Shown here in pieces: positions 288-4,866 of a stretch of DNA of 4,866 nucleotides (positions within the stretch are counted from its first letter, which is position 1; the number at the start of each line of letters is the position of its first letter). The notes beneath the pieces were generated by a model that worked only from the letters and a program-made list of their open reading frames with translations, made no database searches and had not been told where the DNA came from. The position numbers and the translations under genes are program-made. This DNA is from a virus (lineage: Duplodnaviria > Heunggongvirae > Uroviricota > Caudoviricetes), in IMG/VR virus record IMGVR_UViG_2671180415_000012. One strand, given 5' to 3'.

Positions 288-614
288 AAAGACAATAAAT
301 ATAATCACGGAAACATTTTAACATGGAAGAATCTATTTTTTGGGAAGACGAAAAAAAACACAATAAAAATTGGACGCTCACAACGTATCAGTTACCCTAC
401 TCAATATATACATCCTGAAAGCTTAGAGTTATTCAATAAATTTTTCAAAACTAACTAACTTATAGCGCTTATCTATTAATCCAGCAAACCAGAAAAGTGT
501 TTGCTGTTATGTACGTAATACTAAGCGACAAATATCCTCTTATGGCTAACTACCTGTCGGCTAAAACTTAATATTCCATGCTGTAATAAAATTTTTGTAT
601 TTTAACCCTTCACG

Positions 615-835
615 TGTTCACCTTTTGCTATTTTCTCTTTCAATTCATAATGTTAAGGGGTGAACAGTTTCACAAAAACTATTCACCAACTGTTCACCAC
701 TGTTCACCCTTGCAGCTCAATAAACAATCAAAAAGGTGAACAGTGAATAGTTTGGTGAACAGTTCATAAATAACTGTTCACCCTATAATATAATGATATA
801 AAAGACATTTATGACGGGGTGAACAGTGGTGAACA
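615..835. repeat. Iteron cluster, P4-type origin-like (ori or crr): octamer TGTTCACC / GGTGAACA, extended core ACTGTTCACC
   Basis: Perfect octamer copies at 615-622(+), 659-666(-), 691-698(+), 701-708(+), 735-742(-), 754-761(-), 775-782(+), 818-825(-), 828-835(-), plus degenerate copies at 680-687 and 742-749. AT-rich flank at 570-660. Sits immediately 3' of the alpha-like gene (stop at 850-852). TGTTCACC is, to my recollection, the type I iteron bound by phage P4 alpha protein. Confidence 0.8.
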
Positions 836-849
836 GTTATTCCATAAGT

Positions 850-2535
850 TTAATTTTTGCTATCGTCATTAGTGACCGATACACATGATGGCATCCAGTC
901 TTCTGATTCCTCCGTCAGTGTCACGTTTGAACGCAAACCGTGCTTCGTTTTCCGTTTCATATACTCCCTGCCATATTCCGCCATTGCCCCCGGCATATCT
1001 TTACCGAAGCGCGTCAGTGTTACAGGTTTACCAAACCCATGTGCCCTCATATAAGCCAGATAGGCATGATAGAGATACCTGCGTGGGCTGAATGGCACAA
1101 TTTCAGCATTACCCACTAACAGGCCATCACACATTACCGACGCCATGAGATAGCCGCAGAAGTCCACCAGCGAATCCCCCTCTCGCTTTATCGCCAGTGC
1201 TTCTTCAGATTTCTGCTGCTCATATAACAGGCGTCTGGCTTCGTCCTGGTCAGCAAACCGTGTAAGCAGATGGCGAATCACTACCGCCAGCTCACCTTCT
1301 ATTTTTTCCGCCAGCATTGGGTCGCGTTCGTTCTCCGGTACAACTTCCGAAAAATTGAATATCACCCGACGACGTGAGATCCCCCCGCTGCGGTCACTGA
1401 ATGACATGGCGTTATTGTTAACCGCCAGCACTACTGCCGGAATACGCGTTGAGTAGGGGGCTTTGTGTTTCGGGTCAATTGCCACCTTGTCACCGCCTGT
1501 AATGGCCTTAATCCCTGCCCCATCACCAGCGTAGCGGGTCATATCCGGCATGATAATCAGCGAAAAGCCAACCACTAACGCGCGTTCCCTTGCATCTTCC
1601 AGCGCCTTCATGCTTGCCGATACTGTGTTGGCCTTACCCGCCAGCATGGTGCAAATCTCCGCCATCACGCTTTTACCACTTCCCCCTGGACCTGTTACCT
1701 CAATGAATAACTGCCAGTCGTACCGGTTCGCCAGCACCATGAATAATGCAGCCAGTACGCGATCCGCCTTGCGGTCATTCTCAGCCACCGAACGGCGTAA
1801 CCACTTCCAGAAATTCGGCGCATGTGTTGCCAGCGTTTCCCCCTCTGCTGGTGGGCTGAAAGGTAATTCACTGGCAATTAACAACCAGTCGTTTTTGTTA
1901 TGCTCCCGAAAATTACCTGTTCTGGTATCAAATACCCCGTTACTGAATCCAATCAGGTTACGGGCTGTATTCCCCATTACAGGCAAACTTAACTTCATGG
2001 TATCGACCGCCGATTTAATGGCGTTCTGCGAATAGCTGATCTCCGCATCAATGAAAATCTGTGCCATAGCTCGCTGTAATTCTTTATCCTGTACTGGCTC
2101 CCATACAACGCCGTTGTAATGGTGAACAGTGTCAGAGTCAGCATGAATCGCCAGTTCACCGCCATAATGTGCCAGGAGAACTTCGCCGCGTTGACTTGCT
2201 CCCATCTGGTTAAGCGCCAGTGATGAAGCGTTATCGTCTTTTACCCGCTCTTTTTTCTTTACAGGCAGTTCAACTACCTTTTTCTTTTCCGCCTGCTCTG
2301 CCCGTTCACGTTCCAGATATTCGCGCCAGTTCTCCCGTTTCTGGCTGTGCATTCCTTCAGGGTAATAATCAGCATCCCTGACACCTGCCGCTGCCAGTTT
2401 CTGCCCGATGGTATTAACAAGCCCCGGACGCAATAACCCCGCCTGGTAGAGACGCACCCGATAGCGTCCGTCCGGTACGATTTGCAGCTTATCCAGTTCG
2501 GCAAGTTGTTGTTCTCCAAGCCAGACAGGAGGCAC
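850..2535 (-). CDS. P4 alpha-family replication protein (primase/helicase with SF3-type NTPase core and C-terminal origin-binding region); portion downstream of the N-run, true start lies upstream of the gap
   Basis: 561-aa open frame with Walker A GPGGSGKS and Walker B-like LIIMPD, a layout typical of phage/plasmid primase P4-family C-terminal helicase domains. Followed directly by the matching iterons. The GTG at 2535 is only where the frame meets the N-run, not a real start. Confidence 0.85.
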   Translation of the reverse strand: MPPVWLGEQQLAELDKLQIVPDGRYRVRLYQAGLLRPGLVNTIGQKLAAAGVRDADYYPEGMHSQKRENWREYLERERAEQAEKKKVVELPVKKKERVKDDNASSLALNQMGASQRGEVLLAHYGGELAIHADSDTVHHYNGVVWEPVQDKELQRAMAQIFIDAEISYSQNAIKSAVDTMKLSLPVMGNTARNLIGFSNGVFDTRTGNFREHNKNDWLLIASELPFSPPAEGETLATHAPNFWKWLRRSVAENDRKADRVLAALFMVLANRYDWQLFIEVTGPGGSGKSVMAEICTMLAGKANTVSASMKALEDARERALVVGFSLIIMPDMTRYAGDGAGIKAITGGDKVAIDPKHKAPYSTRIPAVVLAVNNNAMSFSDRSGGISRRRVIFNFSEVVPENERDPMLAEKIEGELAVVIRHLLTRFADQDEARRLLYEQQKSEEALAIKREGDSLVDFCGYLMASVMCDGLLVGNAEIVPFSPRRYLYHAYLAYMRAHGFGKPVTLTRFGKDMPGAMAEYGREYMKRKTKHGLRSNVTLTEESEDWMPSCVSVTNDDSKN

Positions 2536-2541
2536 GCTGTC

Positions 2542-2682
2542 NNNNNNNNNNNNNNNNNNNNNNNNNNNNNNNNNNNNNNNNNNNNNNNNNNNNNNNNNNN
2601 NNNNNNNNNNNNNNNNNNNNNNNNNNNNNNNNNNNNNNNNNNNNNNNNNNNNNNNNNNNNNNNNNNNNNNNNNNNNNNNNNN
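2542..2682. other. Run of 141 N (assembly gap or masked sequence) inside the replication gene
   Basis: Literal n characters in the sequence. Confidence 0.95.
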
Positions 2683-2840
2683 TGCTCTCCAAGCCAGACA
2701 GGTGGCACGTTATCGCCAGCCAGTCGCCCGTCCTGTTCCTGCCACTGTTTCGCATGTGCCCACGCATCACTACCCGCAAAAATGATGACTTCCGTCATTT
2801 TGTCACGCGGCTGGTGTTTTAAATTTGGCGCTTTTTTCAT
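2683..2840 (-). CDS. Probable N-terminal segment of the same alpha-like replication gene (MKKAPNLKHQPRDKMTEVIIFAGSDAWAHAKQWQEQDGRLAGDNVPPVWLGE...), separated from the body by the N-run
   Basis: ATG at 2840-2838 preceded by GGAGAGAG (2855-2848). The peptide ends in DNVPPVWLGE, the same motif that restarts the body after the gap. The frame differs by one nucleotide from the body, so the gap length is probably not exact. Confidence 0.5.
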
Positions 2841-3136
2841 TTCTGCTCTCTCCACGCGGCAATCATGTTTTTCAGTTCCTGTAGTTTTTTATCAACATCC
2901 ATACATGACACATGGTTATTTCTGGAAAGCGGGATTTCCCGCCTGAATCTGCTAATAAAGATCTCCACGTTCAGCGAACTATGAAATGAATAGCCATCAC
3001 GAATAAAATACACACGGTCAAACATCAGTTCTTTTACCGTTACTCTGTTACCGTTCTTATCCAGATAAATAGCGCCGGGGATAATTTTGGGGTGTGCATA
3101 ACCGCTGGCAGTCAAGCCAGATAAATACGTTCTCAT
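2837..3136 (-). CDS. Hypothetical 99-aa protein immediately upstream of, and translationally coupled to, the alpha-like gene
   Basis: ATG at 3136-3134. Its TGA stop (2839-2837) overlaps the alpha ATG (2840-2838) as ATGA. Globular-looking composition. Position matches that of the small cnr gene upstream of alpha in P4, but no sequence identity is claimed. Confidence 0.55.
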   Translation of the reverse strand: MRTYLSGLTASGYAHPKIIPGAIYLDKNGNRVTVKELMFDRVYFIRDGYSFHSSLNVEIFISRFRREIPLSRNNHVSCMDVDKKLQELKNMIAAWREQK

Positions 3137-3438: not shown

Positions 3439-3633
3439 NNNNNNNNNNNNNNNNNNNNNNNNNNNNNNNNNNNNNNNNNNNNNNNNNNNNNNNNNNNNNN
3501 NNNNNNNNNNNNNNNNNNNNNNNNNNNNNNNNNNNNNNNNNNNNNNNNNNNNNNNNNNNNNNNNNNNNNNNNNNNNNNNNNNNNNNNNNNNNNNNNNNNN
3601 NNNNNNNNNNNNNNNNNNNNNNNNNNNNNNNNN
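3439..3633. other. Run of 195 N (assembly gap or masked sequence)
   Basis: Literal n characters in the sequence. Confidence 0.95.
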
Positions 3634-3690
3634 AACGACACTTGCGGGGCTTCGTCGTTTCAATTGCTGAATTGCATGTATCAGCACTTG

Positions 3691-3745
3691 TGGTATTCAC
3701 ATTACATTTAGGTGAATACCATTTCAAGTCTTTTTTGGTATTCAC
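3691..3745. promoter_or_regulatory. Operator-like repeat set: perfect inverted repeat TGGTATTCAC-N11-GTGAATACCA (3691-3721) plus a third direct copy TGGTATTCAC (3736-3745), overlapping a candidate leftward sigma70 promoter (-35 TTGAAA at 3727-3722, 17-nt spacer, -10 TAATGT at 3704-3699, minus strand)
   Basis: Read directly from the sequence. The repeats lie between the divergent plus-strand gene (start 3789) and the leftward operon. Half-sites resemble the origin iteron (GGTGAATA vs GGTGAACA). Confidence 0.45.
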
Positions 3746-3788
3746 TTTTGTATTACACTGCATCCCGTTATTAATGGGAGGTGCAAAC

Positions 3789-4094
3789 ATGTCCAGGAGT
3801 TCTGTTAACAATAAGTCACAGCAACTGAATGCCAGATTTCCACATGAAGTAGTGAGTGGCATTGAGGCATCCCTACAGCCAGGGGAAACTAAAGCGAATT
3901 TTATAGTTACGGCTGTACGCGGTGAGATCGCCAGGCGCCAGGCAGAAGGAAGTGGAGAAAATCCCCTTGTGTCTTCACTGGATGCCCTAGCTAATGTCGA
4001 ACAAATCGGCATCAAGGCAGCGGAGGAAATCGGGCAGCTTATCACCGTTGCACGCGAAGAACTCCAGCGCCGCAAGGCCAAAGAATCAGAATAA
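3789..4094 (+). CDS. Small 101-aa protein on the opposite strand from the flanking genes; candidate DNA-binding regulator/repressor (ribbon-helix-helix-like N-terminal region is a guess)
   Basis: ATG at 3789 preceded by GGGAGG (3776-3781) with a 7-nt spacer. Cys-free, protein-like composition (MSRSSVNNKSQQLNARFPHEVVSGIEASLQPGETKANFIVTAVRGEIARRQAE...). Operator-like palindrome upstream and a rho-independent terminator downstream. The 3642 start in the ORF track would read through the RBS and is less likely. Confidence 0.65.
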   Translation: MSRSSVNNKSQQLNARFPHEVVSGIEASLQPGETKANFIVTAVRGEIARRQAEGSGENPLVSSLDALANVEQIGIKAAEEIGQLITVAREELQRRKAKESE

Positions 4095-4151
4095 TCACTA
4101 TCAGCGCCGTGGTGTGAGGAACTCCGGCGCATTGCTTTACAGGCGCACACA

Positions 4152-4328
4152 ATGACCAACGAAGAATCAACCAAAAAAACATCACCTGCACGAAAAAGAC
4201 GACGCAGAAAGAAAGAGCATGAATCAGAACGATTCGCGCCGTGTTCTTTTGCCCTTGAGAAGTACCTTAAAGAATACTCATCAAAGGAGAGAGCTTCGCA
4301 GTTATGGCAACGCACTGAAACAGACTGA
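4152..4328 (+). CDS. Possible small basic ORF (58 aa, MTNEESTKKTSPARKRRRRKKEHESERF...), in the same frame as the preceding gene
   Basis: Below the ORF-track size cutoff. Only a weak AGG Shine-Dalgarno. Lies between the 101-aa gene and the plus-strand terminator. May be non-coding. Confidence 0.2.
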   Translation: MTNEESTKKTSPARKRRRRKKEHESERFAPCSFALEKYLKEYSSKERASQLWQRTETD

Positions 4329-4392
4329 TAGCATTGCCCACCAGCCTGATAGCGGCTATCATTGACATGCTTATGTTTAGTGTTTCCAAACT

Positions 4393-4420
4393 GGCGACCG
4401 CCCCAGGTCGCCTTTGTTTT
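4393..4420 (+). terminator. Rho-independent terminator for the plus-strand unit: stem GGCGACC / GGTCGCC, loop GCCCCA, then TTTGTTTT
   Basis: Perfect 7-bp GC-rich hairpin followed by a T-tract, located between the convergent plus-strand gene(s) and the alpA stop at 4440. Confidence 0.6.
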
Positions 4421-4439
4421 ATGTGTCATATGCTCCCCT

Positions 4440-4649
4440 TTACACTGCCTTACCTGAATTAATGCGATCCCGGCTTTTAACCCATTCCATAACCTCGGAC
4501 AGCAGCCACCCTACAGAACGACCGCCCAGATTAAGACGTGACGGAAAGCGCCCTTTTTTCTCCAGTTCGTAACGTGTAGTGCGGCACACTCCAGTTAACT
4601 TACGACATTCATCCTCACGGATTACGCGATCTTCATTTATTTCACGCAT
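4440..4649 (-). CDS. alpA: AlpA-family (P4 Vis-like) phage transcriptional regulator/excisionase-type HTH protein, 69 aa
   Basis: Translation MREINEDRVIREDECRKLTGVCRTTRYELEKKGRFPSRLNLGGRSVGWLLSEVMEWVKSRDRI... aligns by eye with the conserved TG..R.T.Y / FP / LG.RSVGW / EW..R positions of E. coli AlpA. The internal ATG at 4649 is preferred over the GTG at 4736 because it gives the usual family size and places the HTH near the N-terminus. Confidence 0.8.
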   Translation of the reverse strand: MREINEDRVIREDECRKLTGVCRTTRYELEKKGRFPSRLNLGGRSVGWLLSEVMEWVKSRDRINSGKAV

Positions 4650-4763
4650 ACAAAAACCTACATAAAAATTACGTATATAAACTTTTCTCTTAGCTGTAGA
4701 TATATGAGATCGGATATTACTTAGATTCTTTTTCACCTCTTAAATTAAAAACACAACCATGCT

Positions 4764-4866
4764 GGTAATGACTCCAACTTATTGATAGTGTTTTATGTTC
4801 AGATAATGCCCGATGACTTTGTCATGCAGCTCCACCGATTTTGAGAACGACAGCGACTTCCGTCCC
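4764..4866 (-). mobile_element. IS1 insertion sequence, right end (IRR GGTAATGACTCCAACTTATTGAT at 4764-4786), continuing beyond the window
   Basis: The reverse complement of 4764-4866 matches from memory the last about 103 nt of IS1 (...GGGACGGAAGTCGCTGTCGTTCTCAAAATCGGTGGAGCTGCATGACAAAGTCATCGGGCATTATCTGAACATAAAACACTATCAATAAGTTGGAGTCATTACC). Confidence 0.9.
4779..4866 (-). CDS. insB: IS1 transposase InsB, C-terminal end (partial; ...GRKSLSFSKSVELHDKVIGHYLNIKHYQ*)
   Basis: Minus-strand translation ends with the remembered InsB C-terminus. Stop TAA at 4781-4779 inside the IS1 terminal repeat region. Confidence 0.85.
   Translation of the reverse strand, partial: GRKSLSFSKSVELHDKVIGHYLNIKHYQ

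Follow-up and report, generated by a model that had tools for sequence, protein, structure and literature searches.

A YlcI/YnfO-family ribbon-helix-helix protein as a candidate repressor of the replication operon in a P4-like satellite

Until now, Gram-negative phage-inducible chromosomal islands (PICIs), capsid-forming PICIs and P4-like satellites have been explained through the activator AlpA, and the paper that defined Gram-negative PICIs described their global repressor as "unclear" and the islands as "transcribed unidirectionally" (PMC6092414). Here we analyse a 4,866-nt stretch of virus DNA (Caudoviricetes, record IMGVR_UViG_2671180415_000012; the window hereafter) that carries a satellite of this group, and in it a small plus-strand gene, ylcI, that lies between alpA and the replication operon. 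Our analysis indicates that the ribbon-helix-helix (RHH) protein of the YlcI family encoded there is probably the satellite's own repressor, with predicted operators over the promoter of the replication operon. The argument is built on computational observations of the fold and family of the protein, the architecture of the repeats, the conservation of the promoter, the co-variation of repeats and protein, and a long antisense frame that is kept open. In this sense, the module constitutes a concrete candidate for the missing repressor, with predicted operators and a target promoter. The features on which the argument rests are the following.

3691-3700, plus strand: candidate operator site 1, TGGTATTCAC, overlapping the -10 box of the leftward promoter P_L and its predicted start point
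3699-3727, minus strand: leftward promoter P_L, with -35 box TTGAAA (3727-3722), a 17-nt spacer and -10 box TAATGT (3704-3699)
3712-3721, minus strand: candidate operator site 2, TGGTATTCAC, filling the P_L spacer beside the -35 box
3736-3745, plus strand: candidate operator site 3, TGGTATTCAC, just upstream of the -10-like box of the ylcI promoter
3751-3756, plus strand: -10-like box TATTAC of the putative, weak rightward ylcI promoter P_R
3776-3781, plus strand: ribosome-binding site GGGAGG of ylcI, read from the sequence, 7 nt upstream of the ATG
3789-4094, plus strand: ylcI-like gene, 101 amino acids (ATG at 3789, stop codon 4092-4094)
4393-4422, plus strand: intrinsic terminator of the ylcI transcript, a 7-bp stem (4393-4412) followed by TTTGTTTTAT

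The ylcI gene and its protein

An original prediction, made from the letters of the window alone, had proposed a plus-strand gene at 3789-4094 with a GGGAGG ribosome-binding site and a terminator of its own, and all of these are present in the sequence. A GGAG-type site stands at the equivalent place in most relatives, and the terminator is nearly invariant in two of them (L001 and L002; related loci are referred to by such numbers). Compared with two relatives, ylcI has 19-22 codons with synonymous changes only and 6-9 with non-synonymous ones, and changes at second codon positions number 0-1 in its plus frame versus 7-8 in the minus frame. This substitution pattern supports the plus strand as the coding strand.

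The 101-amino-acid product is very probably an RHH DNA-binding protein of the YlcI/YnfO family, as judged from profile matches and a structural model. It matches NCBIfam NF041551 with 60.3 bits (cutoff 30; E 1.3e-16) over residues 9-50, its homologues carry the source name 'YlcI/YnfO family protein', and PHROGs lists the family as function unknown. The protein consists of an N-terminal RHH domain (about residues 9-54), a short Gly/Ser linker and a C-terminal helical domain (about 59-100). An AlphaFold2 model of the N-terminal 56 residues, computed with 48 relatives, reached a mean confidence (pLDDT) of 90.4 and has an extended N-terminus and two helices, which is the beta-alpha-alpha order of the RHH fold, and a structure search returned almost exclusively RHH repressors and antitoxins as neighbours. 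The family search and fold prediction, which the original prediction had named as a check, thus came out in favour of a DNA-binding protein. PF07704, of the RHH clan (Pfam Met_repress), is matched in 20 of 27 members, with a best E of 0.0011 and all matches below the gathering score; the Pfam scan gave no Arc or RHH family above threshold for the window protein or its relatives, and a single-sequence search of the PDB gave only weak matches to DNA polymerase beta.

The family is small (77 clusters at 50% identity with E <= 0.001, among 1.8 billion representatives) and comes in a long form of about 100 residues, to which the window protein belongs, and a short form of 55-65 residues. Short members have the N-terminal domain and a basic tail, and the long form adds the conserved C-terminal domain. 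The C-terminal half models as one long helix; its coding region (3891-4091) is conserved more strongly than the rest of the gene, in protein as well as in DNA, and G74 is invariant. As a separate observation, the DNA identity of ylcI 3891-4091 between immunity types is about 75-86%, above that of either flank. Neither the long nor the short form was found by tblastn in a phage collection, from which we take it that the family sits in satellites and prophage remnants and not in sequenced phages.

Repeats and promoters

The three candidate operators are exact copies of the 10-mer TGGTATTCAC in plus, minus, plus order, with centre-to-centre distances of 21 and 24 bp, and correspond to what had been described earlier as a 10-bp inverted repeat with a third half-site. 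Three exact 10-mers within 55 bp are far beyond chance. No further exact copy occurs elsewhere in the window, and scans of 10-19 kb in L027 and L001 found, outside the intergenic region, only single copies with one mismatch. For comparison we used 104 related loci, which comprise 49 distinct variants and fall into 13 types according to the N-terminal beta-strand of YlcI. The position of site 1, about -98 from the ATG, is kept in all types, and in relatives a TATAAT/TATACT box is flanked by sites near -53 and/or -30. The xKNxRx types have sites 1 and 2 as direct repeats; in the other types the two are inverted, with equal spacing.

The leftward promoter TTGAAA-17-TAATGT of the original prediction is present and has counterparts in relatives, where TTGACn lies immediately beside site 2 and TAAnnT follows 17 nt on, between sites 1 and 2. 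The combination TTGACn-17-TAAnnT is kept at the same place in distant relatives with different repeats, and the boxes are conserved in Enterobacter, Erwinia, Pantoea, Klebsiella, Phytobacter, Photorhabdus, Xenorhabdus and other E. coli loci. Because this -35/17/-10 arrangement is conserved while the repeats differ, we regard P_L as a real promoter. We take it as the counterpart of P4 PLE, driving the icd-like gene, ORF (open reading frame) X, the DUF4222 gene and the alpha gene. In the rightward direction, TATTAC at 3751-3756 aligns with TATAAT, TATACT or TATATT in relatives, and site 3, which precedes it, is likely the autoregulation site of ylcI.

Other roles for these sequences were considered. 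A palindrome acting as an RNA or DNA hairpin or as an attenuator was ruled out: the direct orientation of sites 1 and 2 in some types excludes a conserved hairpin, and neither direction shows a U-run after the palindrome. Replication iterons were ruled out as well, since identical repeats accompany three different initiators. A TGT-N12-ACA box at 3689-3706, which we take to be reminiscent of the Ogr/Delta activator box, was dropped when inspection of the upstream sequences of the other types found the motif not conserved there.

Co-variation of the repeats with the protein

The comparison across related satellites that had been suggested as a check showed that the repeats co-vary with the N-terminus of YlcI. 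The variable block comprises residues 1-35 of the protein together with the intergenic DNA; conservation is seen in the C-terminal half and in the leader. Every type is characterised by a repeat word of its own, present three or four times, at about -98, -76, -53 and/or -30 relative to the ATG. Examples of beta-strand types with their words are given below.

Type LNARF: TGGTATTCAC
Type LTTVRV: GGTGTGTTTCA
Type ISIRI: GGTGTGATT(T/C)A
Type MTTIRV: GTGA(G/T)ATATAC
Type KLQARA: TGGATTCCA

The word of one variant was found at least twice in the operator region of another in 234 of 268 pairs of the same type (87%), versus 115 of 2084 pairs of different types (5.5%). Within a locus all repeat copies change jointly and the spacers between them drift. 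LTTVRV loci of E. coli and of Photorhabdus/Xenorhabdus have GGTGTGTTTCA sites in common, together with unrelated AlpA proteins and diverged spacers. Conversely, AlpA is near-identical between L016/L017 and L019, and again between L003 and L014, and in both comparisons the repeats and the YlcI types are different. The repeats of the window accompany three unrelated replication proteins (alpha-like, DUF927 and RepA), and overall the repeat sequence does not follow AlpA, Icd or the replication protein in its changes. The joint change of the copies, the sharing of sites by loci with unrelated AlpA and the different sites of loci with near-identical AlpA argue for a real relation between protein and sites. 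The co-variation is also consistent with insertion of the two-stranded antiparallel sheet of an RHH dimer into the DNA major groove. Taken with a conserved promoter that is flanked by the repeats, it supports, computationally, the reading as a repressor with its operators.

Proposed repression and competing explanations

In the mechanism that we propose, RHH dimers would bind the 10-bp repeats through the N-terminal beta-strand, and the C-terminal helical domain would link dimers two helical turns apart. Dimers at sites 1 and 2 would lie over the P_L spacer, -10 box and start point, so that their occupancy would shut off the icd/kil-like gene and the primase-helicase operon in the quiescent island. 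Site 3, beside the weak ylcI promoter, may serve autoregulation together with a fourth site present in most relatives. Binding, the sign of regulation and the oligomeric state are what we infer here, as is the induction route given below.

Several points weigh against this interpretation. The -10 box of P_L in the window is poor, and a generic consensus scan of the window did not call the promoter, because its -10 fits TATAAT at just 3 of 6 positions. For P_R, no recognisable -35 box was found in the window. With the repeats and the N-terminal codons no more than about 100 bp apart, linkage alone yields some co-variation. Within the MKNIRF type the sites are noticeably different, which implies that the beta-strand is not the sole determinant. 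The part given to the C-terminal domain in linking dimers is a guess, and a profile search of the PDB connected this domain weakly with the helix-hairpin-helix of Hef/XPF (E 0.0067), which is a lead only, since Pfam on C-terminal fragments found no helix-hairpin-helix family to confirm it.

A more modest possibility is that the RHH protein binds the repeats but is only a local regulator, limiting a toxic icd/kil-like product or acting as activator or anti-activator of a divergent promoter, with quiescence following from the absence of AlpA alone. The induction of Gram-negative PICIs has been explained by AlpA alone, with no repressor found (PMC6092414). Likewise, the first gene 3' of P_L is Icd-like, of a cell-division inhibitor family, and the operator sites are at this single intergenic region only. 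However, sites over the -10 box, spacer and start point of P_L have the geometry of repression and not of activation, P_L heads the entire replication operon and not icd alone, and many specificity types are typical of immunity repressors. We therefore consider a purely local role rather unlikely, and a repressor of the operon the better explanation.

The repeats might instead be bound by another factor, such as AlpA, a helper-phage protein or the replication initiator, with YlcI doing something else. AlpA is a DNA-binding regulator encoded next door, and the short iterons bound by P4 alpha have GGTGAA in common with the repeats (window 600-850). This explanation appears improbable in view of the loci described above, where near-identical AlpA proteins go with different repeats and unrelated ones with identical repeats, where the same repeats stand with three unrelated replication proteins and where changes in the repeats go along with changes in the YlcI N-terminus; a helper-phage protein, in turn, would not explain 13 co-varying types.

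The antisense frame

What the original prediction had overlooked is that the ylcI module lies antisense within a conserved frame that resembles eta of P4.

3634-4429, minus strand: visible part of the eta-like long ORF (ATG at 4429-4427), which runs on into an assembly gap
4430-4439, minus strand: the 10 nt between the alpA stop and the eta-like ATG, AGGGGAGCAT, including a Shine-Dalgarno-like GGGGAG
3634-3665, plus strand: right arm and T-rich tail of a leader hairpin whose left arm is lost in the assembly gap

The eta-like frame is antisense to the terminator, a 58-amino-acid ORF, ylcI and the operator region. In ungapped sequence (L027, 4826-5641) it encodes 271 amino acids and stops 26 nt before the icd-like start, to which it is not fused. 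The arrangement of alpA stop and eta-like ATG recurs in L001, L002, L003 and L014, and suggests that the ORF may be translationally coupled to alpA. The minus frame that shares wobble positions with ylcI has a median stop-free length of 375 codons. Across the 189-nt intergenic region it is free of stops in 44 of the 49 variants, versus 0 of 49 for each of the other two minus frames, whose stops there average 5.2 and 5.65. In parts of the frame free of constraint from a plus-strand gene, substitutions are flat over the three codon positions (8/8/8). The visible 265 amino acids have no family match, and five eta-like products have no Pfam domain, nor any Pfam or NCBIfam domain outside a C-terminal Icd part. 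Flat substitutions and the lack of a Pfam domain imply that the frame is apparently conserved for being open and not for its sequence. In many relatives, L016 and L003 among them, the long ORF is in frame with an Icd-like domain, and a 314-amino-acid ORF in L023 ends in the same Icd sequence. A start after alpA, an internal promoter and an Icd/Kil-like end are the marks of a nested ORF of the P4 eta/kil type, and all three were found, the Icd-like end in relatives. A reading of the antisense ORF of the window as a real Icd-like protein was rejected for want of a family match or Pfam domain.

The extent of this frame raises the question of whether ylcI is a gene at all, or a by-product of the codon structure of a long minus-strand eta-like protein that would be the real product. 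The minus frame has its own ribosome-binding site and ATG right after alpA, and the RefSeq annotation (PGAP) often labels it an incomplete 'host cell division inhibitor Icd-like protein' pseudogene (L001 9335-9784; L023 3392-3985) and sometimes omits ylcI or the small plus-strand RHH gene of the slot, e.g. in L023. We find this very hard to reconcile with the family profile match, the confident RHH model and the RHH structural neighbours of the plus frame, with its near absence of second-position changes, with the flat substitutions of the minus ORF and with minus-strand products that are devoid of known domains except in their C-terminal Icd part. The better reading is that both frames are in use. 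The labels point to an error that recurs in annotation, whereby ylcI is lost and the antisense frame is given as an Icd-like pseudogene; the eta-like frame itself offers a clean natural example of an ORF conserved for openness and not for sequence.

For induction of an island held by YlcI, we start from the finding that helper phages switch on alpA (PMC6092414). The induced alpA transcript, translated through the eta-like frame, would cross ylcI and the operators into the replication operon; such read-through would bypass repression, and convergent transcription would probably silence ylcI. A more far-reaching and speculative version, which we hold to be possible but doubtful, is a two-strand switch in which the repressor gene and its operators are placed antisense in an ORF selected solely for translatability and not for amino-acid sequence. 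Transcription triggered by the helper and entering from alpA, coupled to translation of this ORF, would then meet the repressor gene head-on, silence ylcI, clear the operators and deliver the replication operon in a single step; a hairpin in plus-sense RNA would act as a cis-antisense RNA and a second lock on the toxic Icd-like gene; and the slot would be an exchangeable immunity cassette (CI RNA, long YlcI, short YlcI or Arc-like RHH) that sets incompatibility types among Gram-negative satellites.

Some further observations concern the leader. Between P_L and the ribosome-binding site of icd there is a conserved hairpin (GGTTAGA-GCCCC...GGGGCTTCG) that has a T-rich tail (L027 4822-4875; L001 8975-9030). 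It is stabler as plus-sense RNA in 44 of 59 variants (-22.8 vs -18.7 kcal/mol), and RNAalifold gave -24.3 for the plus sense vs -8.9. Compensatory changes occur in it, with about 1.9 G.U pairs per stem, and immediately to the left of the icd start stands a conserved hexamer, TAnnnT. The features of the hairpin and the hexamer suggest that a rightward cis-antisense RNA may run over the icd ribosome-binding site. Within the first icd-like codons of L027 (4745-4765, minus strand) there is also a terminator-like hairpin with a T-run, for the leftward transcript. It does not occur in all relatives, and could be an attenuator that depends on icd translation.

The 58-amino-acid ORF and other occupants of the slot

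4152-4328, plus strand: basic ORF of 58 amino acids, in the ylcI frame after a single TAA and 19 codons (phrog_21027, E 7.8e-13)

Homologues of this ORF are found in L001, L017 and L023. Its codon periodicity is weak (13/8/13 substitutions by position), and so is purifying selection, with 8-9 synonymous-only codons vs 15-16 non-synonymous. The original prediction had offered, as a weaker alternative, that the RHH protein is the antitoxin of an addiction module completed by this ORF; the RHH fold is common in antitoxins, the similarity to PF07704 (VapB-like) is of that kind although weak, and the ORF follows ylcI in the same direction, but the idea finds no support and is the least credible of all, because the downstream ORF is variable or absent (missing in L016, replaced by unrelated ORFs in L002 and L020, beside a different RHH gene in L023), lies 57 nt from ylcI, has weak coding periodicity and has no toxin-family match in Pfam, NCBIfam or PHROGs. 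A conserved adjacent cognate toxin gene, as in type II toxin-antitoxin systems, was not found.

The slot has other occupants in other islands. An E. coli O157:H7 island (L023, 3300-3545) has in it a 57-amino-acid Arc-like RHH gene with TGGTAAT(C/T)ACCA palindromes upstream. The C-terminal ELQQRGIEPKG of this protein matches some long YlcI forms, which suggests cassette exchange by recombination within the gene. In L028 (3680-4270) a short YlcI of 61 amino acids occupies the slot between alpA and primase with the same layout of sites; there a 195-amino-acid minus-strand ORF overlaps the short YlcI, and the leader hairpin is followed by a clean T-run.

Comparison with known systems

The closest architecture is the immunity region of P4, which also lies between an alpA/vis homologue and the primase-helicase operon and in which a long ORF, again beginning directly behind alpA, encloses a promoter and finishes with an Icd/Kil-like domain (PMC10111431). 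In P4, translation of eta is coupled to that of the alpA homologue, and eta contains a constitutive internal promoter and the CI RNA, and Eta translation prevents termination (PMC10111431). The old P4 "cI ORF" (8168-8584) bears the same Icd-like domain as the eta-like ORFs of the relatives. The immunity factor of P4, however, is a sense-strand RNA that causes premature termination, whereas the window has in that slot an opposite-strand RHH gene and, over the internal promoter, putative DNA operators. Scanned against Rfam, the window, L001 and the ungapped L027 showed no C4 or IsrK at E up to 1-5 and gave chance-level matches only (e.g. mir-499 and RsaJ), so neither a CI/C4-like RNA nor a seqA-type target in the leader speaks for RNA immunity of the P4 type. 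An eta-like frame with Icd-like relatives and without C4 or IsrK points to the P4 architecture with its immunity determinant exchanged. The central proposal of the original prediction, a divergent protein repressor with operators in place of the P4 RNA, is in this way supported by the RHH fold, the co-variation, the conserved promoter and the lack of C4 and IsrK. P1/P7 immI (c4 RNA, icd, ant) is similar in having an Icd-like first gene in the controlled operon, and differs in that c4 is an RNA repressor, for which the same three sequences gave no match.

Among protein repressors, Mnt and Arc of P22 immI are likewise small RHH proteins at divergent, overlapping promoters. The window protein differs from them in lacking a Pfam Arc or RHH match above threshold, its candidate operators are 10-mers 21-24 bp apart in three or four copies, and the genes under control would be a satellite replication operon and not those of an antirepressor. 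The omega repressor of pSM19035 (2bnw) binds arrays of short non-palindromic repeats, direct or inverted, and is comparable to the present case, where the orientation of sites 1 and 2, direct or inverted, depends on the type. Unlike the contiguous heptads of omega, the sites of the window are two helical turns apart; omega also lacks a large C-terminal domain and shares about 10% sequence identity with the window protein. YlcI and YnfO, encoded in E. coli K-12 by the prophages DLP12 and Qin, are members of the same family, NF041551.

Stl, the repressor of Staphylococcus aureus pathogenicity islands (SaPIs), is a helix-turn-helix protein. The resemblance to Stl that had been put forward holds for the layout and fails for homology, since the window protein has an RHH fold and no repressor-family match in Pfam, NCBIfam or PHROGs. 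A further difference is that its gene lies antisense inside a translated ORF. The layout shared with SaPI Stl and Gram-positive PICI Rpr is that of a regulator on the int side that runs against the replication module and controls the main operon (PMC6092414).

RHH repressor-operator pairs (Arc/Mnt, omega, CopG) and the P4 eta/PLE/CI arrangement are thus of known kinds. Relative to the literature that we searched, the new elements are YlcI/YnfO as a candidate satellite repressor and its antisense embedding in an eta-like frame: the search on YlcI, YnfO and DUF3950 returned no paper assigning a function, and that on P4-like satellites and PICIs nothing with an RHH repressor.

Distribution and significance

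Of 5426 complete E. coli genomes, 1856 contain a match to at least part of the 807-nt query, strain 042 and a Nissle-derived strain among them, and close relatives occur across the Enterobacterales. An island of E. coli 042 carries this ylcI gene, and strain 042 is also the source of one reference PICI (PMC6092414), perhaps the same island. The module provides a candidate function for the uncharacterised YlcI/YnfO family and predicts immunity or incompatibility types among satellites.

Neighbouring genes and state of the window

4440-4649, minus strand: alpA, 69 amino acids (Pfam PF05930, E 1.7e-16), a known activator/excisionase-type regulator in these satellites
Left of the assembly gap, minus strand: ORF X (phrog_15327)
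2837-3136, minus strand: DUF4222 gene
850-2855, minus strand: P4 alpha-like primase-helicase, about 51% identity to P4 alpha
About 600-850: ori/crr repeats of P4 type, a cluster of GGTGAACAG downstream of the alpha gene
4764-4866: end of an insertion sequence, IS1, abutting the alpA side, between alpA and the integrase side

On the minus strand the order from right to left is alpA, assembly gap, X, DUF4222, alpha and the ori/crr repeats. The runs of N in the window are assembly gaps and not masks of true length. The run at 3439-3633 stands for 260 nt in identical chromosomes, and these contain the start of the icd-like gene and the leader; the run at 2542-2682 lies inside the alpha gene, with a duplicated 32-nt overlap on its flanks. 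Several complete chromosomes (L024-L026) match positions 3634-4866 at 100% identity; with these relatives the left part of the window shares 97-98.6% identity. L027 has capsid genes, which places the element in the group of P4, PICI and capsid-forming PICI satellites. The IS1 junction is also present in L024-L026, and L027 is the uninterrupted form. Finally, the GGTGAACAG repeats at about 600-850 match the type-1 repeats of the P4 ori, and the cluster is probably the crr/ori of the element.

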